64,000 nt of DNA, taken from assembly GCA_951812945.1 (NCBI GenBank), contig CATOTB010000001.1, forward strand, positions 488,198 to 552,197, given 5' to 3'. Source of the stretch: Candidatus Dadabacteria bacterium (GTDB taxonomy: Bacteria > Desulfobacterota_D > UBA1144 > Nemesobacterales > Nemesobacteraceae). The number at the start of each line of letters is the position of its first letter. The first letter of the stretch is position 1. The notes below the pieces were generated by a model. The model saw only the letters and a program-made list of their open reading frames with translations, did no database searches and was not told where the DNA came from. Both the position numbers and the translations under genes were made by a program. Shown piece by piece: positions 10,794 to 63,926 of the stretch.

Positions 10794-12922
10794 GTTCGGG
10801 TTTGTATAAGTGACAGGAGTATAGCTTCAGCCGCTTCGGACAGCACGGTTCCCGGACCGAATATCTGCGAGACTCCGGCTTTCCGGAGGTAATCGTAATC
10901 GCGTTTGGGGATAACCCCTCCCGCCACTACCATTATATCGTTGGCTCCCATCTCATCGAGTTTTTTTATCAGTTCGGGGATAAGGGTCTTGTGACCGGCA
11001 GCCAGGCTTGATATTCCGACTACGTGGACATCGTTTTCAACCGCCTGTCTTGCCGCCTCTTCCGGGGTCTGAAAGAGCGGGCCTATGTCAACGTCGAAAC
11101 CAAGGTCGGCAAAGCCAGTCGCTATTATCTTCGCCCCGCGGTCATGGCCGTCCTGCCCCATTTTCGCGACCAGTATTCTGGGTCTTCTTCCTTCCAGTGT
11201 GGCGAAGCGGTCGGCAAGTTCTCTTGCCTTGGCGAATCCGGCATCCTTCGAGATTTCCGAGGAGTATACTCCCGAAATCGTGCGCCACCCGGGCTGATAT
11301 CTTCCCCATACCTCTTCACACGCGTCTGATATTTCTCCTAGGGTCGCGTTTTCCCTCGCGGCCTCAACGGCTAGGGAAAGAAGGTTCCCTTCCCCTGTCC
11401 TGGCACATTCGGTAATTTTCTCAAGAGCGCGCTCCACTGCCCTGGAATCCCTTTCTTTCCTGAGTTTTTTTAGTCTTCTGATCTGATTCTGCCTCACCTT
11501 GCGGTTATCCACCTCAAGTATATCGAATTCTTCCTCTGCATCCGAACTGTATCTGTTGACTCCTACTATCACGTCTTTTCCCGAGTCTATTCTGGCCTGT
11601 TTTCGGGCTGCGGCCTCCTCGATTCTCATTTTCGGTAGGCCGGTTTCTATAGCTTTAGACATTCCGCCCAGTTCTTCTATTTCCATTATAAGTTCCCACG
11701 CTTTTCTCGCCAGATTGTGGGTCAGATATTCAACGTAGTAGGACCCCGCCCAGGGATCAATCAACCTGCATATATCGGTTTCTTTCTGAAGATAGAGCTG
11801 GGTGTTTCTAGCTATCCTGGCGGAGAAATCGGTGGGAAGGGCGATGGCTTCGTCAAGAGCGTTTGTGTGAAGCGACTGGGTGCCGCCGAGCACAGCGCTT
11901 AGGGCTTCAACGCAGGTTCTTGTCACGTTGTTAAACGGATCCTGTTCCGTAAGACTCCATCCCGAAGTCTGGCAGTGGGTTCTGAGCATAAGCGACCCTG
12001 GGTTCTTGGGCTTAAACTGATTGACGATTTTGGCCCATAACATTCTCGCAGCTCTCATCTTTGCGATTTCCATGAAGTGATCCATGCCTATTCCCCAGAA
12101 AAAAGAAATTCTGGGGGCAAAATCGTCGATACTGAGTCCCGCCTCAACGCCCGCTCTCAAATACTCAAGGCCGTCTGCGAGCGTGTAGGCAAGCTCTATG
12201 TCCGACGTGGCACCTGCTTCCTCCATGTGGTAACCGCTTACGCTTATCGAATTGAACTTCGGCATGTTCTTCGACGTGTATTCGAAAATGTCCGAGACTA
12301 TCTTCATCGAGAATTCGGGCGGATAGATGTAGGTGTTTCTTACCATGAACTCCTTGAGTATGTCGTTTTGGATCGTGCCGCTCAGTTTTTCCGGGCTCAC
12401 TCCCTGTCGCTCCGCGACGACTATATAGAAAGCCATGATCGGCAGAACCGCGCCGTTCATGGTCATGGAAACCGAGATTTCGTCAAGAGGTATTCGATCG
12501 AGAAGAATTTCCATGTCCAGTATCGAGTCTATTGCCACACCCGCCTTCCCGACATCTCCCGAAACTCTGGGGTGATCCGAGTCATACCCCCTGTGAGTCG
12601 GAAGATCGAAAGCTATGGAGAGTCCCTTCTGGCCAGCGGCCAGGTTTCTCCTGTAAAACGCGTTTGATTCCTCCGCGGTGGAGAACCCCGCATACTGTCT
12701 GATGGTCCAAGGTCTTGTGGTATACATGGTCGGGTAGGGCCCGCGAAGATAGGGTGGAATTCCAGGGACAAATCCCAGATGCTCGGAGTCGCTGAGATCG
12801 TCGTGGACATAAACCGTTTTTATGTCTATTTCTTCCGGTGATTCCCGTATTATATCTCCGGTTGCCTTGGCATTACCGCTCGAACCGGCTCCAAGCTTTA
12901 TTTTCGAAAAATCGGGTCTCAT
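10790..12922 (-). CDS. mutB: methylmalonyl-CoA mutase large (alpha) subunit with C-terminal B12-binding domain
   Basis: 710 aa; MCM catalytic TIM-barrel motifs plus a C-terminal cobalamin-binding Rossmann segment (DxHDRG). Confidence 0.9.
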
Positions 12923-19310: not shown

Positions 19311-20480
19311 ATGCGCAGGATGAATTCCGACTGCGTAGACCTGATTTACTTAGACCCCCCTTTCAACAGCAAAACAAACTATGCTGCACCTATTGGTAGT
19401 CATGCGGCCGGTGCCGAGTTTAAGGATACTTGGACTCTCTATGACATAGATATTGTCTGGCTTGATTTACTTGAAGCCAAGCATCCAGCACTCAATCGAG
19501 TTATTCACGCTACTTTGACCAAGAGTGATAAATCTTATCTGATTTACATGGCGATTAGGTTGCTGGAAATGAGGCGGATACTGAAACCGGCCGGAGGCAT
19601 TTATCTTCACTGTGACCCAACAATGAGTCACTATTTGAAGCTGGTAATGGATGCTATATTCGGAAGAGAGAATTTTAGAAATGAAATTATTTGGGCTTAC
19701 ACGGGGCCAGGGTCTCCCAATATGAGGCAGTTTAACCGCAAGCACGATGTGATCTTCTGGTACTCAAACGGTGAAGACTGGACATTTAATGGGGATGCTG
19801 TTCGAGTATTGCATAAAAAACCTATTGGGGCTGGAGGCACATCTACAAAATGGCTGAAAGAGAAAGAAGATTTGGCGGAAAAATACAAAGGCGGGAAGAT
19901 TCCCGAGACATGGTGGACGAGGTTTTCTCCTGTCGGAAGGATTAAGGGAGAACGCACTGGTTATCCCACACAGAAACCGAGAAAGTTGTTAAAGCGAATA
20001 ATTGAAGCTAGTAGTCCAAGAGGGGGCATTGTATTTGACCCATTCTGTGGTTGTGCTACGACCTGCATAGCCGCAGAGGAATTAAACCGGCAATGGATAG
20101 GAATTGATATCTCGCCCAAAGCGGCGGAACTTGTACAAACCAGAATACTGAATGAACTAGGTTTTGCTGGACGTGAACATCAGATAATTCACCGCCAGGA
20201 CATTCCACAGAGAACAGATTTAGGAGAGATTCCAAAGTACAACTGTAAGGAGAACAAGAACAGATTGTATGGAGAGCAAGGTGGGCATTGCAACGGATGC
20301 AGAGAACACTTCCAAATGCGTCATTTAGAAGTGGACCACATCATTGCTCGCTCACAGGGTGGCACAGACCACATTGAGAATTTGCAAATGCTCTGTGGAA
20401 ACTGCAATCAGATTAAAGGCAATCGTGGACACGAGTACCTGTTGGCAAGAATGGAAGGGAGAAAAGTACCCTACGCATGA
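19311..20480 (+). CDS. beta-class DNA methyltransferase (DPPF motif IV preceding FDPFCG motif I) fused to a C-terminal HNH endonuclease domain
   Basis: DLIYLDPPF, FDPFCGCATT, then HLEVDHIIARSQGGTDHIENLQMLCGNCN; the conserved N-terminal region extends upstream of ATG 19311 and is frame-linked to ATG 19235 only if the C tract changes length. Confidence 0.85.
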   Translation: MRRMNSDCVDLIYLDPPFNSKTNYAAPIGSHAAGAEFKDTWTLYDIDIVWLDLLEAKHPALNRVIHATLTKSDKSYLIYMAIRLLEMRRILKPAGGIYLHCDPTMSHYLKLVMDAIFGRENFRNEIIWAYTGPGSPNMRQFNRKHDVIFWYSNGEDWTFNGDAVRVLHKKPIGAGGTSTKWLKEKEDLAEKYKGGKIPETWWTRFSPVGRIKGERTGYPTQKPRKLLKRIIEASSPRGGIVFDPFCGCATTCIAAEELNRQWIGIDISPKAAELVQTRILNELGFAGREHQIIHRQDIPQRTDLGEIPKYNCKENKNRLYGEQGGHCNGCREHFQMRHLEVDHIIARSQGGTDHIENLQMLCGNCNQIKGNRGHEYLLARMEGRKVPYA

Positions 20481-20764: not shown

Positions 20765-21697
20765 CTAAGAAGTCAGTTTTTCAAAGGTAATGGTCTTGCC
20801 CACCATAGCACCGAACAGGGCGTTCAGTCTATCTTCTGTATCAACCTTGCAACTTCCTTCGCTCAAACGAAAAGCGAACTCGTTGATATAGGCACGCATG
20901 TGCTTCTTACTCCAGTTGTGGTAAACGCCGTTGTATCCACGCTTCATGACCGCCCATACGCTTTCAATCCCGTTGGTAGAAGCCATGCCATTTACGAATT
21001 CTTTCGCTGAATGATTGACTGTTCCGTGTTCAAAATCCTTCCCGAGTAATCCGCTATAGCCTTTATGTTCATCCGTAAACACGATGGAACCCTTAACGAC
21101 ATTTTCGCTTATCTCTCTTTCGAGGGTTTCCGCGTCCCGTCTTTCAATAGGAATTGCCTTAGTCTTGCCGCCACGTTCTCTCATGCCGAGTACGCAGGTC
21201 TTTCCAACAGGTCCACGTCCGGCGTGAAGCTTCTTGGATTCGTGTTTGTTTTTTTCGAGACCTCCCAGAAAAGTTTCGTCTATTTCCACAACTCCCTTCA
21301 AGGCTTCCATATCGCTTCCGCAGGCAAGACGCAGACGGTGAAGCATGTACCAAGCAGTGGGTTGGGAAACAGCCAGTTCCTTGCTTAGCTGGAGACTGCT
21401 TATGCCCTTTCTGGCTGTCATTAGCAGATAAGCGGCGAATATCCACTTGCGAAGGTCAATCTTTCCATACTCAAGCGGAGTTCCGGTGCGAGCGGTGAAA
21501 TACTTGCGACAATTCCCGCACCAGTAACGTCCAGGGTGTTTGAATTGAGGGGTGATCTTCTCGGTGCTACCGCACCTTGTGCAGTGCCTCTTGTTACCCC
21601 ATCTCTGATTCTCAAGATACTTGATAGCATCTTCCTCAGTAGGATATTTCTGCATCAACTCGAACAAGCTGATTATCTTTGCATGTTTCTTTTTCAT
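20765..21697 (-). CDS. IS1595-family (ISXO2-like) transposase with N-terminal zinc ribbon
   Basis: CxxC...CxxC zinc ribbon (HCTRCGST...WCGNCRKYF) followed by a DDE ISXO2-like domain; 310 aa. Confidence 0.85.
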   Translation of the reverse strand: MKKKHAKIISLFELMQKYPTEEDAIKYLENQRWGNKRHCTRCGSTEKITPQFKHPGRYWCGNCRKYFTARTGTPLEYGKIDLRKWIFAAYLLMTARKGISSLQLSKELAVSQPTAWYMLHRLRLACGSDMEALKGVVEIDETFLGGLEKNKHESKKLHAGRGPVGKTCVLGMRERGGKTKAIPIERRDAETLEREISENVVKGSIVFTDEHKGYSGLLGKDFEHGTVNHSAKEFVNGMASTNGIESVWAVMKRGYNGVYHNWSKKHMRAYINEFAFRLSEGSCKVDTEDRLNALFGAMVGKTITFEKLTS

Positions 21698-24004: not shown

Positions 24005-24100
24005 TGCGGTTTTATCGAACAGATCCTCTATATCTGTTGTCACAGAAGGGGTCCGGTCGGGGAATTGTTATTTGTTTTTTTCGACTTTAATATTAAGAAG

Positions 24101-24775
24101 GTGTCTGGAAAAGCGGTTGTCATGGTTTCGGGAGGCGTGGACAGCTCGACTCTCTGCTACAAGGCGGTACGGGAAGGTTACGAAGTCTTTCCTCTTACCT
24201 TTATATACGGACAGAAGCACGAGAAGGAGATCCGCTCCTCAGAGAATATATGCCGTCATCTGGGACTTGCCCCCAACATAATCGACCTTTCCTCAATAAG
24301 GACTCTTTTCGGCGCCTGCGCGCTTACCGATCGGGAAGTCGAGATTCCGAGAGTCTCCGCGACGGCGCGCAATTACGATACTCTTTCCGCCACAGTCGTT
24401 CCGAACCGAAACGCCATTTTCCTTTCTCTGGCGGTTGCCTATTCGCAGGGTATCGGTTGCGATACGGTGTTCTACGGCGCGCATCATTCCGACAAGGGAG
24501 TATATCCTGACTGCCGCATGGAGTTTGTTTCCGCTTTCGAGGAGGCTGAGAAACTTGCGACTGGTAACGAACGATTAACGATAGTTGCTCCATTTGTGGA
24601 TCTGGACAAATCAGGCATAGTCAGACTCGGTTCACGTCTCGGGGTTCCTTTCAAGGACACGTGGTCATGCTACGTGGGCTCCCGGATGCACTGCGGCACC
24701 TGCAGTTCCTGCAGAGAAAGAAAAAGGGCTTTTATCGAGGCGGACATAACCGACCCGACCGAATACGAGGCGTAA
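24101..24775 (+). CDS. queC: 7-cyano-7-deazaguanine synthase
   Basis: PP-loop SGGVDSS and C-terminal Zn motif CGTCSSCRER; the track ORF starts at TTG 24065, and GTG 24101 or ATG 24122 is more likely. Confidence 0.85.
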   Translation: MSGKAVVMVSGGVDSSTLCYKAVREGYEVFPLTFIYGQKHEKEIRSSENICRHLGLAPNIIDLSSIRTLFGACALTDREVEIPRVSATARNYDTLSATVVPNRNAIFLSLAVAYSQGIGCDTVFYGAHHSDKGVYPDCRMEFVSAFEEAEKLATGNERLTIVAPFVDLDKSGIVRLGSRLGVPFKDTWSCYVGSRMHCGTCSSCRERKRAFIEADITDPTEYEA

Positions 24776-24780
24776 TTGCG

Positions 24781-25422
24781 GTGAAGGTAAACGAGATCTT
24801 TTTTTCAATACAGGGTGAAGGGATCCATATCGGGCTGCCGACAGTTTTTCTCAGGCTCTTTGCCTGCGATCTCAGATGCAGTTGGTGCGATACCATGTAC
24901 GCCGTGGAGGGAACCGACTTTCGGGAAATGGGAACCAGTGAAGTGCTGAGCCAGATTCTTAAATACAGCTGCTCCCGGGTCTGCATAACCGGAGGGGAAC
25001 CGCTTATCCAGCGGGAAGCCGTGGAGGAGGTGACGGAGTTTCTGCTTGATAGGGATTTTGTGGTCGTGCTTGAAACAAGCGGGAACAAGAAACCTCCCCG
25101 GATTTTCTCCCATCCCAATTCGGTTGTGAGCATGGACTGCAAGTGCCCCGGTTCGGGCATGGCCTCCAGAATGGATTTTTCCCTCTATGATGCCTTGGAG
25201 GAGAAGGACCAGCTTAAGTTCGTAATAGCCGACGATGCGGATTACGAATACGCAAGGGATATTATAGGGGAGCGTTGCGTCAGAGCTTCAATCATATTCC
25301 AGCCCGTTTACGGCACAAAAGCGGACTGGATAGCGGAGAGAATTCTCCGCGACGGCATGGAAGACATAAGAGTGCTTCCGCAGCTTCACAAAATATTCTG
25401 GGGAGAAAAAAGAGGAGTCTGA
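24781..25422 (+). CDS. queE: 7-carboxy-7-deazaguanine synthase (radical SAM)
   Basis: VNEIFFSIQGEG and the CxxxC-containing radical-SAM motif CDLRCSWCDT; GTG start at 24781 (the track ORF at 24661 overlaps queC). Confidence 0.82.
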   Translation: MKVNEIFFSIQGEGIHIGLPTVFLRLFACDLRCSWCDTMYAVEGTDFREMGTSEVLSQILKYSCSRVCITGGEPLIQREAVEEVTEFLLDRDFVVVLETSGNKKPPRIFSHPNSVVSMDCKCPGSGMASRMDFSLYDALEEKDQLKFVIADDADYEYARDIIGERCVRASIIFQPVYGTKADWIAERILRDGMEDIRVLPQLHKIFWGEKRGV

Positions 25423-53836: not shown

Positions 53837-55373
53837 ATGCACGAGGAAACGGAGTTCAAGCTCTCCCTTTCGCCCGCAGTGGCGAATCGGATTTTGCGTT
53901 ACAAGGGACTCAGGCCCCACCGCAAGGGCCGCCGTGTAAAGCACCGTTTAGTAAGCACCTACTTCGATACTCCCCGCCACGCGCTAAGAAAATCCGAGAT
54001 AGTGCTTAGGGTGCGCGATAACGGCAAGGGCAGGGAACAGACTGTAAAGGCGCCGTTCCAGGGTCCCGCGGGCCTTCAGAATTTCCGTGAATGGACCGTG
54101 GCGGTAAACGGTGACTGTCCGAATCTTTGTGCCGTGGACGACCCTGCGCTCGCGCGCAAGCTCTCCCGCGGGCGTTACGAAAAGCGCCTAAGCCCTCTGT
54201 TCACCACTGACTTTGAGCGCGAAGCAGTTCGCATAAGGGTCCGGGGCACCGAATTCGAGCTTGCGGTTGATCAAGGGATCATTCGCGCCGAAACGCGCGG
54301 GGGGGACAGTTGAGGAACCCATATGCGAAGCGGAATTCGAACTGCTCTCAGGGGACCCGGCGCGGATGTTCGATGTGGCTCTTGAACTCTGCGAGGCTTA
54401 TGACATACGCCTCGGCCACCTTACCAAGGCGCAAAGGGGCTACGCACTCACGAGACCGGCGCTCCGTCCCAGACCCTGCAAGGCCCCGAAGGTTGTGCTC
54501 ACGGAGGAGATGAGCGTAGGAAAGGCGTTTAACTTCATCATTGCCGGCGCGCTTGAGCACATGTTTGCAAACGAGACCCCGACCCTGGAGGGAAGGGCGG
54601 AGGGGGTCCACCAGACGAGGGTGGCCATGAGGCGCGTGCGCGCGGCGCTTCGGGCTTTCAAGAGAATACTTCCGTACGACAAGCGAAAGGCGTTTAACGG
54701 AGAGTTCCGCTGGTTCCAGCAACGACTGGCCCCGGCCCGCGACTGGCAGGTCTTTTTGAGCGAAACGCTTCCAAAGATAGCCGCTGCCGCTCCCGAGCAG
54801 GAAGAAGCGATAAAGCGCCTTCGGCGCATCGCGCGCGCCGAGCGCCGCCGCGCCGTGGGAGACGCTGCCGCTTACCTTGATAGCCGCCGCTACGCCCGGC
54901 TGCTTCTTCAGTTCGAGCGATGGATCGCGTCTGTGGAGAAGGAGGTCGGCTCAAAGACTTTCGACGAGCCCGTAAAGCCGTTTGCAAGAAGCGTCCTCAG
55001 GAGAACGTGGCGCTATTTCCTTGAGGATACGAGGCCTCTTTCACGCCTTCCTGACGAGGATCTTCACGAAATAAGAAAACGGGGGAAAAAGGCCCGCTAC
55101 GCAACGCAGTTTTTCAACTCGCTCTGGACCGGTTCCCGGGTTCCGCCCTTCATGAAGCTCATGGGACGCTTCCAGGACAGCCTTGGAAAGACAAATGACG
55201 CGATAGTGGCGCGGCACATCCTGGCGGCGGTTAAGCCGGGGAGGCTCGATCCCTCGGTAATCCATCTTGCGCAGGAGTGGTCCCAGGCCCGGGTGAGAAA
55301 ATGCCTTCGCACGGCGCAGCCGCAGTGGAGGCGCCTCGGGAGAGTTGCGCCGTTTTGGGAGGCGGCGGAGTGA
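53837..55373 (+). CDS. CYTH-CHAD domain protein interrupted by a frameshift in a G7 tract (two ORFs: 53837-54313 and 54261-55373)
   Basis: the CYTH domain continues across the frame change (…AVDQGIIRAETRGG | TVEEPICEAEFELLSGD…); CHAD domain in the second ORF. Confidence 0.6.
54299..54305 (+). repeat. homopolymeric G7 tract at the CYTH-CHAD frameshift site
   Basis: read directly. Confidence 0.7.
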
Positions 55374-55461: not shown

Positions 55462-57621
55462 ATGGCTTCTTCTATAACGGACATCTCGAGCAAGAGGGCC
55501 CCTGCCGGTTTTTCCAAAAAGGAAAAATATCTTAACAGGGAGCTTTCTTGGCTTGACTTTAACCTTAGGGTTCTTGAGACGGCGGCAGACAAGAAGGTTC
55601 CGCTTCTTGAGAGGGTGCGCTTTCTCTCCATCTCCGCTAGCAACCTCGATGAGTTCTACATGGTCAGGGTGGCGGGTCTTGCGGGACAGGTTATGGAGGG
55701 AGTTACAGATCGCAGCAAAGACGGCCTTACTGCGTCGCAGCAGCTTGAAGCGATAAGGGAGAAGGTGCACTTCCTGCTTGACAGCCAGTACGAGTGCGAA
55801 AAGGACTTGTTTTCCCTCTGCAAGAAGGCCAAGATCAAGATCGTAACTCCCGAGAAACTCGACCGCTCGGGCGCCAGATGGCTTTCCGAGTGGTTCTCTA
55901 AAAAGCTTTTTCCGGTGCTTACCCCGCTTGCCATAGACCCAGCGCATCCGTTTCCCTTCATACAGAGTGGGAGCCTTGTGTGCGCCGTGCAGCTGAGCCG
56001 CGCCGAGGACGGAAAGCGCATGAAGGGTCTCATAATTCTGCCTTCTCAGGTTGAGCGCTTCATAAGGGTTCCGGGAGGAAAAAAAACCCAATTTGTCCCG
56101 ATCGAGAAGGTCATCGAGCACAACATGAAATCCCTTTTCCCGGGTTTTGAAGTGGATGACAACGGGATCTTCCAGATCACCCGAGACAGCCTTCTTGAGA
56201 TAGACGAAGACGCGGAAGATCTGGTCGAGACGTTTGAAACTGCCCTTAAGCAGCAACGCAGGGGAGGGTCAGTGATCAGGGTTGACGTCAACGCGGACAT
56301 GCCGGATGCGATCGTCAACTTCATAATGGACAAGCTTGAGGCCAGTGACGCGCATTTTTTCAGAATCAAGGGGATGCTCGGGCTTGAAAGCGTGAAACAG
56401 ATAATACTCGATGAGCGAAGCGACCTTCTTTACAAGCGCATGAGTATCCGCTACCCCGAGCGGGTCAGAGAATTCGGAGGCGACGTGATAGCCGCCATAC
56501 GGCAGAAGGATTTCGTCGTTCACCATCCCTACGAGAGTTTCGACGTCGTCGTTGAGTTCCTCAAGCAGGCAGCCGAGGATCCGGCGGTCGTTGCGATCAA
56601 GCAGACGCTTTACCGCACCTCGGAAGACTCTCCGATAGTGAAAAGGCTCATAGAAGCTGCTGAGGCCGGAAAATCCGTAACTGCCATGGTGGAGCTCAAG
56701 GCCCGTTTCGATGAGGAGGCCAACATCCGCTGGGCGCAACGCCTCGAGGATGCGGGAGTCCAGGTTGTGTTCGGATTCATTGACCTTAAAACACACGCCA
56801 AGGTATCGCTGGTAGTGAGAAGGGAAGGTTCTGACATCCGTACCTACACCCACTATGGCACCGGCAACTATCACCCCGTAAACGCCAAGATATACACAGA
56901 CCTCAGCTACTTCACAGCCGACGAGGCGCTCGGCCGCGACGCCGCCAAGCTTTTTAACTACATGACCGGCTATGCCACTCCGAAGAAGATGGAGAGGATA
57001 TTTTTCTCTCCCGTCACGATGCGCCCGAAGGTGCTTGAGCTTATAAGGGACGAGATAGACCATGCGAAGGCCGGCCGCCCCGCGGTGATATGGGCCAAGA
57101 TGAATTCCCTTGTGGACAGCAAGATAATAGACGCGCTTTACGCGGCGAGTTGCGCGGGGGTAAGAATTGAGCTTTTCGTTCGGGGAATATGCTGCCTGAG
57201 GCCCGGGGTGCCGGGGCTCTCCGAGAATATCAGGGTAAAGAGCATTGTGGGGCGTTTCCTTGAGCACAGCAGGGTTATCTGCTTTGGCGCCGGGGAGGGG
57301 CTTCCTTCTAATGCCTGCAAGGTCCTCATCTCGTCTGCGGACTGGATGCCCCGTAATCTTGACCGCAGGGTGGAGTCGCTTGTTCCAATTGAAAACGCCA
57401 CGGTGAAAAAGCAGCTTGTCGAGCAGGTGATGGTTGCTAACCTAAATGATGTCGCGAACAGCTGGGAGATGCTCCCTGATGGTTCTTTCCGCAAGCTAAA
57501 AAGCGATTCGGACAGTTTTTCGGCTCATAAATACTTTATGACCAACCCCAGTCTTTCAGGAAGAGGCAAAGCGCTTGCCAAATCCCGGCCGCAAATGCCG
57601 GCTGAGTTTGTGCAGGAATAA
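55462..57621 (+). CDS. ppk: polyphosphate kinase 1
   Basis: 719 aa; PPK1 N, head and two PLD-like C-terminal domains. Confidence 0.93.
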   Translation: MASSITDISSKRAPAGFSKKEKYLNRELSWLDFNLRVLETAADKKVPLLERVRFLSISASNLDEFYMVRVAGLAGQVMEGVTDRSKDGLTASQQLEAIREKVHFLLDSQYECEKDLFSLCKKAKIKIVTPEKLDRSGARWLSEWFSKKLFPVLTPLAIDPAHPFPFIQSGSLVCAVQLSRAEDGKRMKGLIILPSQVERFIRVPGGKKTQFVPIEKVIEHNMKSLFPGFEVDDNGIFQITRDSLLEIDEDAEDLVETFETALKQQRRGGSVIRVDVNADMPDAIVNFIMDKLEASDAHFFRIKGMLGLESVKQIILDERSDLLYKRMSIRYPERVREFGGDVIAAIRQKDFVVHHPYESFDVVVEFLKQAAEDPAVVAIKQTLYRTSEDSPIVKRLIEAAEAGKSVTAMVELKARFDEEANIRWAQRLEDAGVQVVFGFIDLKTHAKVSLVVRREGSDIRTYTHYGTGNYHPVNAKIYTDLSYFTADEALGRDAAKLFNYMTGYATPKKMERIFFSPVTMRPKVLELIRDEIDHAKAGRPAVIWAKMNSLVDSKIIDALYAASCAGVRIELFVRGICCLRPGVPGLSENIRVKSIVGRFLEHSRVICFGAGEGLPSNACKVLISSADWMPRNLDRRVESLVPIENATVKKQLVEQVMVANLNDVANSWEMLPDGSFRKLKSDSDSFSAHKYFMTNPSLSGRGKALAKSRPQMPAEFVQE

Positions 57622-57625
57622 CTCT

Positions 57626-59154
57626 ATGACAGAAATTTCTTCCTCCGCCGCGCCCTTCGGCAAGGTCGGAACCGCGGCCGTAATAGACGTAGGATCAAAC
57701 TCCATACGTCTTGTGATCTACAAGGGCCCGAGGCGCGCCCCGCTTCCAATACTTGATGAGAAGGTTTCCTGCGGCTTGGGGCGCGGGATGGACTCTCGGG
57801 GCAGGATGTCTCCGCAGAGCATGGATCTCGCCCTGCGAACTGTAAGCCGCTTTGTCGATATCGCGCGCTCGATGAAGGTTTCCGGAATAAAGGCGGTTGC
57901 CACCGCCGCGGTGAGAAACGCCTCAAACGGCTCCGACTTCAAAGAGGCTGTTGAGCAGCAATGCGGGATTTCACTTCGGGTGCTCTCTGGCATGGACGAG
58001 GCAAGGCTTTCCGCGCTCGGTACTCTCTGCGCCATTCCTGACGCTGACGGCGTAATGGGGGATATAGGCGGCGGAAGCCTTGAGTTGGTAGAGATTTGCG
58101 AAGGGGAATTAGGAAACCACGCCACGTTACCGCTTGGCACGATCCCGCTTCTTGAAAGCGGCCTGAGTCCCGTAAAGGCCCGAAAGAAACTGATTGTCCC
58201 CCTCCTTGACGAGCTTTCCTGGCTTGAGAACGCGAAAAAGAAAACCTTCTACGCCGTCGGGGGTTCGTGGCGAGCTCTTGCTAAAAAACACATGGAATCT
58301 GAGGATTATCCGCTTCGCATAGTTCACGGCTACAGTCTTTCGAGATCCAAGGCGGTTGAGATGTCCGGGAGATAGCCGAGATGTCTTCGGGTTCGCTTCA
58401 GGATCTCTGGACCCTGGGGCGAAACAGGGTGGAGTCCGCTCCCTACGCCGCCACGCTTATGAAGAGTCTTCTGAAAAAAACGGGCGTTAACAACCTCATG
58501 TTTTGCACGTACGGGCTTCGGGAGGGATGTATATACGACGATCTTTCCCCGGAGCAGAGTTCTCTGGATCCGCTGGTTGTCATGTGCGAGGAAATCGCCC
58601 TTAAGATGGGAAGGTCCGTTGAGGACGGCAAGGCTTTCTGCAAGTGGATAGAGGCGGCAATTCCAGATAAATACGCCGGAGACTCGAGGCTTAGGCTCGC
58701 CGCATGCCATCTCTCGGACATAGGAATTTCCGAGCATCCGGAATACCGGGCGGAGCAGGTGTTTTTAAGGATACTGCGGATGCCGCTTGTGGGAATCACT
58801 CATCCGGAGAGGGTGAAGGTGGCTCTCTCGGTATCTTCAAGACACGCGGCAATAGGAAACCTGATTCGCCGCTGGGAAGTTTCCGGGTTTCTTTCCAATG
58901 ATGATGTGGAGGAAGCCAGGGTTACGGGGCTTGCTCTTCGTCTGGCTTACACGGTCTCGGGAGGGGTGGCGCGGATTCTTGAGAGTACCAGGCTTGAGAG
59001 AGCCGGGAAAAAGCTTGCTTTGCATATGCCTGGCCAGATTCCTCACCCGGAAACCGTCGGTCGCCGTCTGGGGGCCCTTGCAAAGGCCGTCGGATGCGAT
59101 TATGAGACGATTGCGCGGGATCAAGCTAATGAAACCGCTGGGTGGGGAACTTAG
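57626..59154 (+). CDS. ppx: Ppx/GppA-family exopolyphosphatase, split into two ORFs by a frameshift near 58345-58395 (57626-58375 and 58381-59154)
   Basis: N-terminal actin-like Ppx-GppA domain (VIDVGSNSIRLVIY) in ORF 1; the continuation (…GLREGCIYDDL) and HD-like region in ORF 2 are in another frame. Confidence 0.65.
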
Positions 59155-59203
59155 ATTCGTGTAGAATTCCCTCTGACTTTTAGCTGTTTGCTGGTCGGAT
59201 CTG

Positions 59204-60106
59204 ATGAATTTACTTGACGCAATAGACAACCTGAATATCTGGAAGCAAGGGGACAAAAGAGCTCCTCACAAGCCTCTACTTCTTCTATATGCGCTCGCTG
59301 AACAAGTCCGAAATCCAGACGCTAGGTTTGAGTTTTTTCGTATAGAAGAAAATATTGATCAGTTATTAAATGATTTTTACAAATCATTTCCCGGACGCAG
59401 ACACCATGTAAATGATCCTTTCTGGCGCCTTCGCGGGGATGGAATCTGGAAAGTAGAATCCGACGGAATAATAAGGGAAACCAGTTCAGGAGGTGCTTAT
59501 GTAAGCGATTTAAGGAAATACAATGCTACGGGTTCGTTTTCTAAAGGGGTTGTTCAAGAGATAAGAAATAATCCTGAAGTTGCTTTGCAGGCCGCACGGA
59601 AACTGCTTAATGAACATTTTCCCGAATCATTGCATCAAGATATACTGGAGACTGTAGGATTAGATTACAAGACAATTTCTGCTAAAGAATACATTTCTAA
59701 AAAAACTAAAAGAGACAGTACATTTCGGCAGAAGGTTCTTCACGCCTACGGTTACAGTTGTGCGGTGTGCGGGTTTAATCTGCGCATGAAAACTCTTCCT
59801 GTCGGACTGGAAGCGGCGCATATCAAGTGGCATCAGCATGGAGGACCAGATGCTGAAAACAACGGACTGGCACTATGCGCCACGCACCACAAGTTGCTTG
59901 ACTCGGGGGTGCTGGCACTCTCTGACAATTACCAAATCATTCTTTCAGAGTGGATATTTGATCCCGACCGAAAAAACAGTTTTATACGGGAGCATCATAA
60001 CCGTGAAATCAGATTGCCTAGGAACAGCAACCATTTGCCCAAAATGGATTATATCCGCTGGCACAGAAAAGAAGTGTTTAAAGAACCCGAACTAGTTTTG
60101 ATTTAG
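59204..60106 (+). CDS. McrA-like HNH endonuclease with an uncharacterised N-terminal domain (candidate modification-dependent restriction enzyme)
   Basis: C-terminal HNH: CAVCGF...LEAAHIKWHQHGGPDAENNGLALCATHHKLLDSG; N-terminal domain with KAPHKPLLLLYAL; AT-rich. Confidence 0.65.
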   Translation: MNLLDAIDNLNIWKQGDKRAPHKPLLLLYALAEQVRNPDARFEFFRIEENIDQLLNDFYKSFPGRRHHVNDPFWRLRGDGIWKVESDGIIRETSSGGAYVSDLRKYNATGSFSKGVVQEIRNNPEVALQAARKLLNEHFPESLHQDILETVGLDYKTISAKEYISKKTKRDSTFRQKVLHAYGYSCAVCGFNLRMKTLPVGLEAAHIKWHQHGGPDAENNGLALCATHHKLLDSGVLALSDNYQIILSEWIFDPDRKNSFIREHHNREIRLPRNSNHLPKMDYIRWHRKEVFKEPELVLI

Positions 60107-60539
60107 TAGTACTAAGTGAAATAAATTCTCAAATCTGATTGCGAGATGCGGCAATACGAAGAAAAAGCCTTTTTTGATTCTTGAGATACTGCCAAGATAA
60201 AGTGATAGCAACAATCTGTATGGAACTTTCAACGTCGCAACAATCTCTGGGCATGCCAAGTCTTAATCGTGCATGGTTGCTTGGAATCTTGGCCAACATC
60301 TCTTCATGAGATCGTTGCCGATGTACTGTGATAAAAGGAATTTGAATTGTTCGGTATGTACTTCTTTAAGCTTATTACCAAACGAATGATCAAGGCATGT
60401 GTAGGCAGTTCCTCAAAACACCGAAAAGAACTGACAAAGGAGATGCCGCTTGGAAACAAATGGGTGGTTTAGGGCGGCATTACAGTTGTTGCCACCATGC
60501 TGGAGAGAACCCTGACGAGGCAAACACAGGAGTATTGCG

Positions 60540-61586
60540 ATGAATCGAACGAAAGTATTTCTTGATTCCAACATCTTAATCCAAGCGGGGAAACCACCGG
60601 GTGGGCCGGTCCTCGAACGGTTGAAGCATTTGGTTAATGCCGGTCTTGTAACTGTGCTGACCACGGATCTGACCTGCCGGGAGGTTGCGAAGAAGCATAC
60701 TGAAAACGACTACAATGTCATAAAAGAAGTTGGACAACCTCATTTCCGCAATATAGTTAAGGACATACTGGGCACCAAGTTTCCCAAAATCACTAAAAGC
60801 AAACTGAAAACCAAACTTGCCAAGTCATACAGGCAATCCACCGAGGCTATGCTCACTGAGCTCAACTGCAGAATGCTGAAAATTGACGATATTAAACCTT
60901 CCAAAGTGTTATTTTCTTACACTAACGGAGAGGGGTTCTTTGCTGGAGAGGCAAAAAAGGAACAATTTCCCGACGCTTTTATCTTCGAGTGTCTCAAGGC
61001 CGAAGCGTCAGGGGAAGAATCGATTATAGTTGTCTCGAATGACCGTGATTTCAAAAAACCGGTCGAGGATGAGGCTCACATCTCGCTCGTGAAATCCTTG
61101 CCCGAACTCTTTGAAAGGATGGGTCTTAAAATTGACGCACCCGACATGGAGGGTTTCCTTGAGTGTCATGAGGGTAAGTTGTTTGAAGCGGTCAACGAAG
61201 AGTTGAATTGCTGGGGATTCGTTGGAGATGTTCCAGACTCCGAGATTGAAGAGACAACAGTAACTGATGTGAGAGTAATTAAACTCGCAAGTTTCGGGTC
61301 GACTGAGAAAAGAGGCTCAATTCTGATAGTCGGTCGTCTCCATGTGAGAGCGGAGATTTCATATGCCCATCCGGACTGGGATACCGCAATGTACAGCGAC
61401 GACGATATCCTTGTCTGGATTAATGATGAGCGCGTGAGTGGCGAGACTGAAGTCGGCTTCAATGTGGATGTGTCGATGTCGGTAGCGGTGGATAAAAACG
61501 ACAATCCCAAGAGCATTGAAGAACTGCGTTTCCTAAACGGCGACTTTCAGCATATCGAGCTCCACAGTGATCATTATCACGATTAG
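60540..61586 (+). CDS. PIN-like nuclease domain protein with C-terminal domain of unknown function
   Basis: PIN signature acidic residues (VFLDSNILI ... IVVSNDRDF); GGAG RBS. Confidence 0.55.
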   Translation: MNRTKVFLDSNILIQAGKPPGGPVLERLKHLVNAGLVTVLTTDLTCREVAKKHTENDYNVIKEVGQPHFRNIVKDILGTKFPKITKSKLKTKLAKSYRQSTEAMLTELNCRMLKIDDIKPSKVLFSYTNGEGFFAGEAKKEQFPDAFIFECLKAEASGEESIIVVSNDRDFKKPVEDEAHISLVKSLPELFERMGLKIDAPDMEGFLECHEGKLFEAVNEELNCWGFVGDVPDSEIEETTVTDVRVIKLASFGSTEKRGSILIVGRLHVRAEISYAHPDWDTAMYSDDDILVWINDERVSGETEVGFNVDVSMSVAVDKNDNPKSIEELRFLNGDFQHIELHSDHYHD

Positions 61587-61642
61587 CGGAAACGCAGTCT
61601 GGGAAAAACAATGTCTTGCGTCAATCAACATGACTCAAGTTT

Positions 61643-62293
61643 ATGAACAGGGTAAAATCCTCTGGATTCCAGGTTGAGGTATGGATTAACATGTTGCCCG
61701 ACTTTCCTAAGATAAAGAAAGACATCCATAAGAAATTGCTTATCCCATATGCCAAGCACAAGAGGGCATCACGTCTGGGGATTTTGAACCAAATGACCTT
61801 AATAAAAGTGCATGAAGGCAATAATAGTCGGATCCTCAGAAGCGACAAAACTCAAGATACGGCGAGACCGAATGATATTTCAGGAAGCTTTTCATATGAA
61901 CTTTCCGATATAAAAGATATGACGATAGAAGATGTTTTTAGGAATATAGACGATGCAACGGAAGAGCTTACTATTAAACTGATTGATCATGTCGTGAATA
62001 AAGTCGAAACCGTCTGCGAAGAAACGGGCAACGTACTAAATCTTAACAACAAGAAATTTACCGCCGTTCACTACCTTGAACTTCTTGAAAAACTTGAAAT
62101 AAGATTCGATTGTAACGGAGATCCGATTTTGCCGGATGCTCTTGTGGGTGCTTCACTTGATCCAAAGGCTATAAAAGAAGAGATGCAAAAAACACAAAAG
62201 GATGAAACGCTTCGAAAAAGATTTGCCGAAATCATAAGCAAGAAAAGAGAAGAGCATAATGCTAGAGAGGGTAATAGAGAACTGGTTAGATAA
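61643..62293 (+). CDS. hypothetical protein (probable start ATG 61691)
   Basis: ORF overlapping the downstream gene by 35 nt; no family I recognise. Confidence 0.4.
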   Translation: MNRVKSSGFQVEVWINMLPDFPKIKKDIHKKLLIPYAKHKRASRLGILNQMTLIKVHEGNNSRILRSDKTQDTARPNDISGSFSYELSDIKDMTIEDVFRNIDDATEELTIKLIDHVVNKVETVCEETGNVLNLNNKKFTAVHYLELLEKLEIRFDCNGDPILPDALVGASLDPKAIKEEMQKTQKDETLRKRFAEIISKKREEHNAREGNRELVR

Positions 62294-63926
62294 CGTGACG
62301 GAAAGATCGTTTGAGAACTCTTTTTGTCACATGCTTGCTTACCGAGGCTACACCGTTTTACACAAGACCAGGCATACCGGACTGGAAATGGGCAAGGATG
62401 TAATTGCCGTAGCGGAAGACGGCGTCCCTTGTGTTTTTCAGTTGAAAACCGCGGTGAACGGAACCATAAAACAGCGATACTGGACTGATAACATACAGAA
62501 TCAAGTTATTACGATGATCAATACCAAACCGATCCATCCAGCTTTGAAAGACTATAGCCACCACAGATCTTATTTTGTTACGAACGGAAAAATAGAAGAA
62601 GAGGTAACGCGGCAGATAGATGATTTAAACAGAAGGTTTGAAGCTCAGGGATGTGGACATAAAAAATTGGAAGTAATTGTCAAAGGTCAGTTGTCGGCAT
62701 GGGCAAAAGAACTGGAAACGGACTTGTGGCCGTCGGAACTGACAGACGTTCGGCTGCTTCTTGAACTCTTTCTTGAAGATGGAAAAGATGTTCTTGATAA
62801 AGCAAAGCTGTCCCGGCTTCTTGAGGCCTGCGTTAATTTTGAAAGCCATCCGAATAAAAAGGAGTCGAAAAGAGCAGTCTCGAGTTTAGCCCTCTTAAAC
62901 GCTGTTGCCGTAAGCAACTATTCGAACTCGAAGAACTACGTTGCCGAGATTGAAGCATGGGTGATCTACATGTCTTATTTATTTGCTTATGCTGAAAAAT
63001 GGAAAATTGGAAAGAAAATCTGGTCTGAAGAATTTAACATTGCGAAGAATTATATTGGTCAGCTTCTGGGAGAGCTTTATAAGGAAGTAAAATCCTCCAA
63101 ATTTTATATCGAGGGTGACCCAAGCACAGAACCATTTCTTATTTACCCTATACGGATTACATACTTGATTTCTCTTATGAGCATTTTCTCTTTATGGGCT
63201 GAATGTGAAAATTTTGACGACAATGAAGAAATAAATGAGTTCTGCAGGGAGTTCTGTTTAAAAAACAAAGACTATATGCTTTTGTGGGGAGAGGCCGCTG
63301 TACCTCAGTACTTATCATTCTACTGGTATTACAGCAAAATTGACGCAACCATCTCACCCTCTAATTTCTTATTAGGTGCTATTGGACAAATTATTGCGTT
63401 AAACAAGCCCAAGAACTTGCCAAAACAAGAAAATGTTTTCAGGGGAAACGAACACTTGTACCTTCCGCAAAACGATGGGATAGCGAACGCTTATTACAAT
63501 TCTAATGAATTATTGCCATATCTGCTCGGAATAAACGATGAACCGATTGAGGATCATTTTTTAGAACGCTCCCAAACTTTATGGGCTTTAATTGAGATTT
63601 ACGTCCGCTTGAATTTTCAAAGACCGGTATTCATGTTCTGGAAAGATGCAACATACATTAGCGAGGTTGAATTCAAGCCCAAATACAAATGGCATTTCTT
63701 TAGATGGAAAAATGATGAGGGAGAAGTGGTAGAAGAACAGAAAAATGGGCAAAAATGGCCTGAATTAAGAAAGCAAGTTCAAGAAATTGATTACAGGAAT
63801 ATTCCAGAAAAATTCAAGAAAGAACCTATATTGTTTTTGTTGTTTTTATGTGTATATCCCCATCGCATCTCTACTTCAATTGTGAAATGGCTTGATAGCG
63901 AAATCCGTGAACAAGAAACTGATTAG
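62259..63926 (+). CDS. protein with N-terminal Mrr-like PD-(D/E)xK nuclease domain and about 450-aa C-terminal region of unknown function
   Basis: FENSFCHMLAYRGYTVLHKTRHTGLEMGKDVIAVAEDGVPCVFQLK fits the Mrr_cat pattern (D...D/E-x-K as GKDVIA...FQLK); remainder has no family I recognise. Confidence 0.5.
   Translation: MLERVIENWLDNVTERSFENSFCHMLAYRGYTVLHKTRHTGLEMGKDVIAVAEDGVPCVFQLKTAVNGTIKQRYWTDNIQNQVITMINTKPIHPALKDYSHHRSYFVTNGKIEEEVTRQIDDLNRRFEAQGCGHKKLEVIVKGQLSAWAKELETDLWPSELTDVRLLLELFLEDGKDVLDKAKLSRLLEACVNFESHPNKKESKRAVSSLALLNAVAVSNYSNSKNYVAEIEAWVIYMSYLFAYAEKWKIGKKIWSEEFNIAKNYIGQLLGELYKEVKSSKFYIEGDPSTEPFLIYPIRITYLISLMSIFSLWAECENFDDNEEINEFCREFCLKNKDYMLLWGEAAVPQYLSFYWYYSKIDATISPSNFLLGAIGQIIALNKPKNLPKQENVFRGNEHLYLPQNDGIANAYYNSNELLPYLLGINDEPIEDHFLERSQTLWALIEIYVRLNFQRPVFMFWKDATYISEVEFKPKYKWHFFRWKNDEGEVVEEQKNGQKWPELRKQVQEIDYRNIPEKFKKEPILFLLFLCVYPHRISTSIVKWLDSEIREQETD

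Follow-up and report, generated by a model that had tools for sequence, protein, structure and literature searches.

In this study, we analysed a stretch of 64,000 nucleotides from a Candidatus Dadabacteria bacterium (contig CATOTB010000001.1, positions 488,198 to 552,197), referred to as the window in the following. The subject is one gene on its forward strand, located at 59204..60106, which encodes a predicted phosphorothioate (PT)-dependent restriction endonuclease consisting of a sulfur-binding domain (SBD) and an HNH nuclease domain (SBD-HNH). The open reading frame (ORF) is intact and runs from an ATG start codon over 300 amino acids to a stop codon, exactly at the coordinates given in an earlier note on this DNA, which had described the product as an E. 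coli McrA-type HNH nuclease with an unrecognised N-terminal part of 200 residues. The gene lies at a step in GC content from ~55% to ~43%, with 42.7% in the gene itself and 55.0% in the 4 kb upstream. Its product is divided into a winged-helix based SBD (residues ~1-158; 59204..59677), a flexible linker (residues ~159-172; 59678..59719), and a nuclease domain of the HNH (beta-beta-alpha-metal) type, which has a CxxC...CxxH zinc site and is extended at its C-terminus (59720..60103), all encoded on the plus strand. Two peptides quoted in the earlier note, APHKPLLLLYALAEQ (residues 20-34) and FWRLRGDGIWKVE (residues 73-85), were found in the protein; in the quotation one residue had been dropped, and the true text contains DKRAPHKPLLLLYALAEQ (...DKRAPHKP...).

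For the whole protein, the NCBIfam model NF045808, 'phosphorothioated DNA-binding restriction endonuclease', gave a match of 322.6 bits (E 1.8e-96) at a curated cut-off of 180 bits, spanning residues 2-293 of the protein and positions 2-284 of the 284 profile positions. A local Pfam-A scan (E≤1) returned HNH_2 and HNH only, while PF26340 (DNA-SBD_ScoMcrA), together with PF13391 (HNH_2), was obtained solely from the precomputed Pfam annotation of the database protein P0001, which is identical in sequence. Because the SBD was absent from the local scan, NCBIfam, searches against the PDB and a fold search were relied on. Residues 20-154 were aligned by phmmer with PDB sequences of the ScoMcrA SBD (5ZMM/5ZMO/5ZMN). 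A profile built from an alignment of 31 homologues (A1) was searched against the PDB and found ScoMcrA (3.3e-18), the SBD of SprMcrA (7CC9, 7CCD, 7CCJ; 1.2e-8), and SBDHga (8H0L; 9.9e-6). The AlphaFold2 model computed from A1 reached a mean predicted local distance difference test score (pLDDT) of 86.6 and a predicted template modelling score (pTM) of 0.83. Its sole weak stretch, with a pLDDT falling to 54, comprises residues ~161-170 between both domains, where the linker is also gapped and variable in A1. The top PDB match of the model in Foldseek was 5ZMO, in which the SBD of ScoMcrA is bound to PT-DNA (probability 1.00; target-normalised template modelling (TM) score 0.78), followed by complexes of the SprMcrA SBD with TM scores of 0.68-0.72 (0.71-0.72 for 7CC9/7CCJ) and by 8H0L with a target-normalised score of 0.63. 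No family of SRA/PUA-like readers and no EVE match was obtained in Pfam, NCBIfam and PADLOC scans of the protein. Judged by NF045808, PF26340, the PDB matches and the predicted fold, the part that had been called 'not an obvious SRA, EVE or SBD' is a ScoMcrA-type SBD and as such already known.

In a large protein database, 5509 homologues were found at E≤1e-3. Enterobacterial homologues annotated as 'phosphorothioated DNA-binding restriction endonuclease' share 37-38% identity over 97% of the length; for an E. coli protein with an NF045808-type annotation, which is not established as EcoWI itself, identity was 37% over 293 aligned residues. Among named relatives, the closest one (89% identical) is annotated as a 'restriction endonuclease' and comes from a Candidatus Dadabacteria metagenome-assembled genome (MAG); further close loci carry the label of Thermodesulfobacteriota MAGs. 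In the literature, SBD homologues number about 1700 after dereplication, more than 80% of which combine an SBD with a single HNH domain, and eight characterised PT-dependent enzymes belong to that clade (PMC10602919). Among the SBD-HNH enzymes, EcoWI, Ksp11411I, Bsp305I, Mae9806I and Sau43800I cut beside GpsAAC/GpsTTC, and the identity of the characterised enzymes to EcoWI is just 27-31%, and 18.5% for SprMcrA (PMC7461809). On the basis of sequence and model, the protein encoded in the window is assigned to this characterised ScoMcrA/SprMcrA/EcoWI family of SBD-HNH enzymes. In comparison with an 89%-identical orthologue in a related locus (L001), the ratio of nonsynonymous to synonymous substitution rates (dN/dS) was 0.076 at a dS of 0.68, and both domains were found to be constrained (dN/dS 0.096 for the SBD and 0.049 for the HNH domain). 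With 5509 homologues and such a dN/dS value, the observation itself is confirmed and far beyond chance.

The residues forming the sulfur cavity are known from ScoMcrA, where P165 is the floor and H116, R117, Y164 and A168 are the walls, R117 forming a salt bridge to the phosphorothioate; mutations of H116, R117 or P165 abolish PT binding, and most homologues have Lys at the position of R117 (PMC6224610). In the window protein, the motif R19-A-P-H22-K23-P-L25 (59258..59278) is aligned to 'ALHRPVLLL', so that H22 and K23 correspond to H116 and R117. In the motif D71-P72-F73-W74-R75 (59414..59428), P72 corresponds to P165, D71 to the lid residue Y164, and R75 to A168. The residues H22, K23, P24, P72, F73, W74 and W82 are invariant in the 31 homologues of A1 and in all 20 alleles compared; position 71 differs among the alleles (D/E/Y/F/M), with the invariant P-F-W beside it. 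The aromatic lid Y164 and the small A168 of ScoMcrA are thus not matched, which is no defining failure, since both positions are poorly conserved and tied to sequence context (PMC6224610), and Met occupies the lid position of the annotated member from E. coli. The loop R91-E-T-S-S-G-G-A98 (59474..59497) was aligned to the loop S187-RGRR-191 (L4) of ScoMcrA, for which a role in base-context reading has been described (PMC6224610, PMC10602919). It is without the two base-reading arginines of ScoMcrA and hypervariable across alleles. Because lid and context loop differ from ScoMcrA, the preferred PT context is not predictable.

The HNH domain was recognised by Pfam HNH_2 at residues 186-239 (E 3.1e-10) and by alignment of residues 168-246 with the HNH domain of TagI (6GHS; phmmer E 5.7e-8, profile E 3.9e-10). 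The pattern reported in the earlier note is present in full (C186-x-x-C189-G190, L202-E-A-A-H206, G213-G-P-D216, N220...L224-C225 and H228-H229-K-L231). The key residues of the domain, C186, C189, H206, N220, C225, H228, H229 and D233, are invariant in A1 and in 20 of 20 alleles, so that an HNH domain lacking its catalytic residues, named by the earlier note as a possible refutation, did not occur. The label 'E. coli McrA-type' holds loosely at best, as the domain is closer to those of TagI, VcaM4I and ScoMcrA than to that of EcoKMcrA by phmmer and Foldseek; in Foldseek, the C-terminal half matched TagI, VcaM4I and, more weakly, EcoKMcrA. Also found in the protein was the EcoWI-family motif KPzzLL...PF..L..W, followed by the CxxC/CxxH zinc site and HNH; this motif has been published for the characterised EcoWI-type enzymes (PMC7461809), in which a variable linker sets the cleavage distance (Lutz et al., PMC7461809).

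The general architecture suggested earlier, in which an HNH nuclease is joined to a modification reader in the manner of Type IV enzymes, was borne out by these results. The further suggestion of a new specificity domain, i.e. a reader for a modification other than PT such as a methylated or hydroxymethylated base, is hardly credible, because sequence, profile and fold searches all led to the SBD family, the sulfur-cavity residues are invariant, and no SRA, EVE or PUA-like match was obtained; in its favour, the protein is unlike ScoMcrA at position 71 (the lid, Y164) and in the base-reading loop, and the local Pfam-A scan gave the HNH domains alone. The supposed new domain is the known ScoMcrA-type SBD, the very domain which had been ruled out.

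We consider it probable, on the evidence of homology and model, that the protein is a PT-recognising, modification-dependent (Type IV/IIM-like) HNH endonuclease which restricts PT-modified incoming DNA. For such an enzyme, the N-terminal SBD would dock on DNA and take up the Rp sulfur of the PT linkage in a hydrophobic cavity of small size, with P72 as floor and the methylene groups of H22 and K23 as walls, K23 forming a salt bridge to the phosphorothioate. The loop at ~91-98 and residue 71 would choose the sequence context, and the linker would position the zinc-stabilised HNH domain such that a cut is made some nucleotides away from the PT mark. H206 is expected to act as general base, with N220 and H229 contributing to the metal site, and a dimer is probable by analogy with EcoWI. 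The presumed target would be PT-modified phage or plasmid DNA entering the cell; the host locus carries no PT-writing genes.

Upstream of the SBD-HNH gene, the window carries dnaE, a CYTH-CHAD gene, ppk and ppx. Compared with the near-identical related locus L020, DNA identity is 97-100% through ppx to ~58.9 kb, 64% at 59104-59203, and then between 55 and 73% over the length of the SBD-HNH gene. From this collapse of identity and the GC step, the left edge of a variable island is placed at the end of ppx, the boundary feature comprising the ppx 3' end and the intergenic spacer (59000..59203, no strand assigned), and the SBD-HNH gene, with which the island opens, is part of the variable cassette. 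A role of the gene as stable flank or recombination anchor was rejected, as identity to L020 collapses before the gene start and stays low across it. A scan of the region 58900-60700 for promoters and terminators gave no terminator and one promoter-like site on the wrong strand, both below shuffle expectation.

The rest of the island in the window (60540..63926, plus strand) consists of a PIN_12 gene and an orf216/orf555 module, located where relatives carry ssp genes. The PIN_12 gene (60540-61586, plus strand) starts 433 bp downstream of SBD-HNH and encodes a protein of 348 amino acids, which starts with a PIN_12 domain at its N-terminus (E 2.6e-28) and whose C-terminal half is uncharacterised. 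The genes orf216 (61643-62293) and orf555 (62259-63926), both on the plus strand, overlap, and no Pfam, PADLOC or PDB match was obtained for either. All three genes are absent from all related loci examined. For orf555, 423 homologues of ~535-545 amino acids were found across several phyla, with the two-gene module conserved, and its N-terminus resembles a PD-(D/E)xK nuclease motif, as far as can be judged from sequence. A copy of the module (90%/93% identical) is located at 9433-11668 of L022 beside TraE/TraK/TraL/TraG, a SocA_Panacea gene and a DDE transposase; orf216/orf555 are accordingly mobile cargo, with a possible role in defence.

Two of the upstream genes are each split into two ORFs in different frames, namely ppx (57575-59154) and the CYTH-CHAD gene (53837-55373), whereas relatives have single proteins of 513 and 511 amino acids, respectively. 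The frameshift sites are a C-run near 58372 in ppx and a G7 run near 54300 in the CYTH-CHAD gene, where L001 has G5. These splits have the look of errors in long-read assembly and not of pseudogenes.

Homologues of Ssp proteins were searched by tblastn with SspA-G of relatives, and none was found anywhere in the 64-kb window, although a divergent dnd cluster would escape these queries. A PADLOC batch on 42 other window ORFs contained no strong Dnd/Ssp match among the matches listed (25 of 116 families). Also, no homologue of a relative's SspB was found on the 937,352-bp contig recorded for the identical SBD-HNH protein; this negative is a weak argument, as the contig is perhaps not the window's own, the best database match of orf555 being only 93% identical.

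The order dnaE/CYTH-CHAD/ppk/ppx followed by SBD-HNH is kept in most of the related genomes found; in L010, L011, L017 and L018/L019, CYTH-CHAD or ppk/ppx are missing, or extra DNA precedes SBD-HNH. What follows the gene varies. In L001/L002, which carry the 89% identical allele, SBD-HNH is a solo gene followed at once by core genes (AMP-binding enzyme, tatC), without an island. In L004-L007 and L013 (alleles with 80-82% identity), the first 69-73 codons of sspA directly follow SBD-HNH, at about 10950-11170, and then break off. These remnants are 62-71% identical to the intact sspA of L015 and represent what is left of an Ssp cassette after its deletion; the remnant of L013 is followed by genes of the toxin-antitoxin-like and abortive-infection kind (HipA, DUF6088, AbiEii). 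A full sspABCD begins 23-60 bp past the SBD-HNH stop codon in L015/L016 (74%), L008 (65%) and L017 (63%), with PADLOC matches for SspA (1.6e-127), SspB (1.8e-109), SspD (1.7e-90) and also SspC, and genes for a PbeA-like helicase and a HATPase_c_3 protein come after sspABCD in L015 and L017. The 53% identical allele of L020 is accompanied by sspBCD-sspFGH (PADLOC: SspC E=0, SspF 5e-211, SspG 5e-131), and in L009, sspC and sspD are located on the opposite strand, ~7 kb from SBD-HNH.

A further arrangement was found with alleles of 55-67% identity (L010, L011, L014, L018/L019), namely a variant cluster (10962-18867 in L014 and 11908-20395 in L018) that encodes PDC-M33A/B-like proteins, a divergent SspD-like protein and SspA (5e-139). 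Its members are the HATPase_c_3 protein (PADLOC PDC-M33A), a protein similar to PDC-M33B, one or two unknown proteins, a protein of 423 amino acids with a weak SspD/BrxP match, and SspA/DndA; no SspB or SspC was recognisable in L010, L011, L014 and L018. The cluster is followed by a bona fide SspE (1.5e-229) in L018/L019; L011 and L014 have a shorter GmrSD_N protein at this place. The cluster may be an undescribed variant of Ssp phosphorothioation. In L010 (9045-10891) and L018/L019 (10001-11850), the cluster is preceded by two tandem SBD-HNH paralogues, which are ~59% identical and differ at the lid position (Tyr versus Asp) and in the context-reading loop, suggesting two PT-context specificities side by side. 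Ssp adjacency was thus observed for L008, L015-L017, L020 and the variant clusters of L010, L011, L014 and L018/L019, and is lacking for the window allele. In genomes whose Ppk is 95-96% identical to that of the window, the SBD-HNH proteins are 89%, 65% and 53% identical, and by this comparison each kind of Ssp cassette comes with its own SBD-HNH allele.

The erosion of the locus in sister lineages, visible in their sspA remnants, raises the question of decay in the window as well. That the gene in the window is inactive, left over from a lost Ssp cassette and now decaying, is very improbable. No ssp genes are present here, and two neighbouring genes have apparent frameshifts, which fits a relic; no catalytic or binding residue is missing from the intact ORF, purifying selection is strong in comparison with another ssp-less orthologue (L001), and the frameshifts of the neighbours, located in homopolymer runs, look like errors of the assembly. 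The solo gene in L001 and the strong purifying selection in two genomes lacking ssp point to an ssp-independent function, which fits the logic of a Type IV enzyme.

Several points weigh against an enzyme that restricts PT-modified incoming DNA. With D71, R75 and the absence of the base-reading arginines, weak or absent PT dependence is possible, and low activity was seen for two of the nine enzymes that Lutz et al. assayed (PMC7461809). The alleles that head PT-writing Ssp cassettes in relatives are awkward for a simple model in which the enzyme kills PT-DNA, and as the window covers 64 kb, dnd, ssp or brxP may be present elsewhere in the genome. The missing promoter- and terminator-like sites around the gene also count here, yet they say little in this lineage. 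Finally, the present results show the family membership, the fold, the conserved cavity and catalytic residues, the purifying selection and the lack of ssp genes in the window; PT binding, cleavage, sequence context, oligomeric state and in vivo target are inferred by homology alone.

The linkage with Ssp cassettes allows for a different interpretation, in which SBD-HNH is, or formerly was, a working partner of Ssp systems instead of a stand-alone Type IV enzyme, and the window copy has been orphaned. Such a partner might cut only PT patterns that the host does not make, e.g. double-stranded Dnd-type marks as opposed to hemi-modified CpsCA, or self PT might serve it as a mark for licensing or sequestering. 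SBD-HNH alleles head three kinds of cassettes (sspABCD; sspBCD-sspFGH; the variant with SspA and SspE), five more loci keep the first ~70 sspA codons directly after the gene, and the gene is exchanged together with the cassette, as seen for L020, where the ppx DNA is 97-100% identical to that of the window and the SBD-HNH protein 53%. There are also precedents. Proteins with SBD (winged helix-turn-helix, wHTH), SAD and HNH domains occur inside Dnd loci of 698 taxa and were proposed as alternative restriction components (PMC10853773), and mcrA is located between brxP and brxC in PT-writing BREX type 4, where it is dispensable for PT synthesis (PMC12914056). In the wider family, 7 of 80 metagenome loci have an Ssp-like neighbour (immediate in ~5 of the 7; alleles 34-45% identical to the query), so that clustering is not the family norm, and a 43% identical allele in a 5-Mb genome adjoins a TIR gene instead of ssp. 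Predicted PT-dependent enzymes near dnd clusters amount to ≤3.6%, with 64 cases left unresolved (Lutz et al., PMC7461809).

We regard a working partnership as unlikely, since each cassette already has a known or candidate effector (SspE, SspFGH, or the PbeA-like helicase with the HATPase_c_3 protein), the window and L001 alleles are under strong purifying selection without an ssp neighbour, defence genes cluster in hotspots without functional coupling, and SBD-HNH is without the nucleoside triphosphatase (NTPase) switch that lets SspE and DndI spare self DNA. The more specific idea of SBD-HNH as the sole Ssp effector was rejected because of the other effectors in the cassettes.

The coexistence of reader and writer in the relatives could be explained by the type of mark. 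SspABCD writes single-strand CpsCA marks, while some SBD-HNH enzymes, Bsp305I among them, cut fully (double-strand) modified sites only and are context-specific (PMC7461809); by analogy, an enzyme restricted to double-strand marks could leave hemi-modified CpsCA uncut. It is a tentative proposal, below an even chance, that in this clade SBD-HNH is the conserved first gene of Ssp-type cassettes, a PT reader-nuclease co-inherited with the writers, with the window copy as a selected orphan. If true, the co-inherited enzymes may tell foreign PT from hemi-modified CpsCA of the host or use self PT as a licence, and the tandem paralogues with differing specificity residues (L010, L018) would imply that multiple PT contexts are read. 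The unusual point of the locus is this clade-specific linkage of SBD-HNH with Ssp cassettes, which is not the norm in the family.

Outside this clade, relatives of SBD-HNH were observed on 22 predicted viral or proviral contigs of IMG/VR (L103-L124), with 35-39% identity where full length; being often located at the contig edge, they may belong to the host and flank prophages instead of being genes of a phage. On the E. coli plasmid NZ_AP023207.1 (L003), a homologue at 63153-64028 is part of a defence island, with an integrase, a 5'-nucleotidase, the sirtuin Dsr1 and a Type I specificity (S) subunit as neighbours. Elsewhere in the window, a fusion of 389 amino acids (19311-20480) combines an N6/N4 DNA methyltransferase (E 1.2e-47) with a C-terminal HNH domain (E 1.4e-13), beside a transposase of the IS1595 family (20765-21697) and in DNA of low GC content (42-46%). 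Also in the low-GC region, at 24065-25422, overlapping ORFs for QueC (E 9e-67) and a radical-SAM protein are located beside unannotated ORFs of 477 and 451 amino acids; candidate roles are the synthesis of tRNA queuosine and a DNA modification with 7-deazaguanine.

The family assignment as such is of minor weight, as SBD-HNH enzymes have been characterised in structure and biochemistry, thousands are known, and NCBI annotation rules name them automatically. The main result is a correction, in that a supposed new reader is a sulfur-binding domain already known. The allele, which has an Asp lid and a distinct loop and stems from an uncultured lineage, could widen the toolbox for PT mapping (EcoWI-seq), provided that its context specificity differs. 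The alleles heading Ssp cassettes bear on the coexistence of PT-dependent nucleases with PT writers, for which the literature lists unresolved outliers, and the clade offers natural comparison sets, i.e. the solo gene, the gene with a remnant, and the gene with three kinds of cassettes.

Among the known systems, TagI (SRA-HNH, 6GHS), VcaM4I (6YEX) and EcoKMcrA (6GHC) share a related HNH_2-type domain and the logic of a reader joined to an HNH nuclease. Their readers, however, see modified cytosines, and the match is limited to the HNH domain, with whole-protein TM scores of 0.24-0.33. An EcoKMcrA-type enzyme for 5-methylcytosine was rejected as candidate, since the Foldseek match to 6GHC (E 5.8e-4, TM 0.24) runs through the HNH domain and the N-terminus is an SBD; likewise rejected was the SRA-HNH/PUA-HNH type, the matches to 6GHS and 6YEX covering the HNH region alone. 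SspE and DndI, PT-sensing nickases of the DUF262-DUF1524 type, also sense PT, have an HNH-type nuclease and adjoin PT-writing genes like the relatives of the window gene, but they use a ParB-like NTPase reader instead of an SBD and attack PT-free invaders, PT marking self. In some of the cassettes that carry SBD-HNH alleles, SspE is present as a separate gene. ScoMcrA of Streptomyces coelicolor (5ZMM/5ZMN/5ZMO) and SprMcrA (7CC9/7CCD/7CCJ) have the same SBD fold, the sulfur cavity and an HNH nuclease; ScoMcrA differs by an extra SRA domain and its length of 561 amino acids, identity between the SBDs is just ~20-24%, and neither the GGCC-reading loop S187-RGRR-191 nor the Y164 lid is conserved in the window protein. 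With the EcoWI-type enzymes, the window protein shares the two-domain layout at ~290-300 amino acids, the full-length NF045808 match, the motif KPzzLL...PF..L..W, and the CxxC/CxxH zinc and HNH residues. It differs from them in its origin from an uncultured Dadabacteria-like lineage, in the Asp at the Y164-equivalent position and in its context-reading loop, and from most of them in belonging to a clade linked to ssp cassettes.

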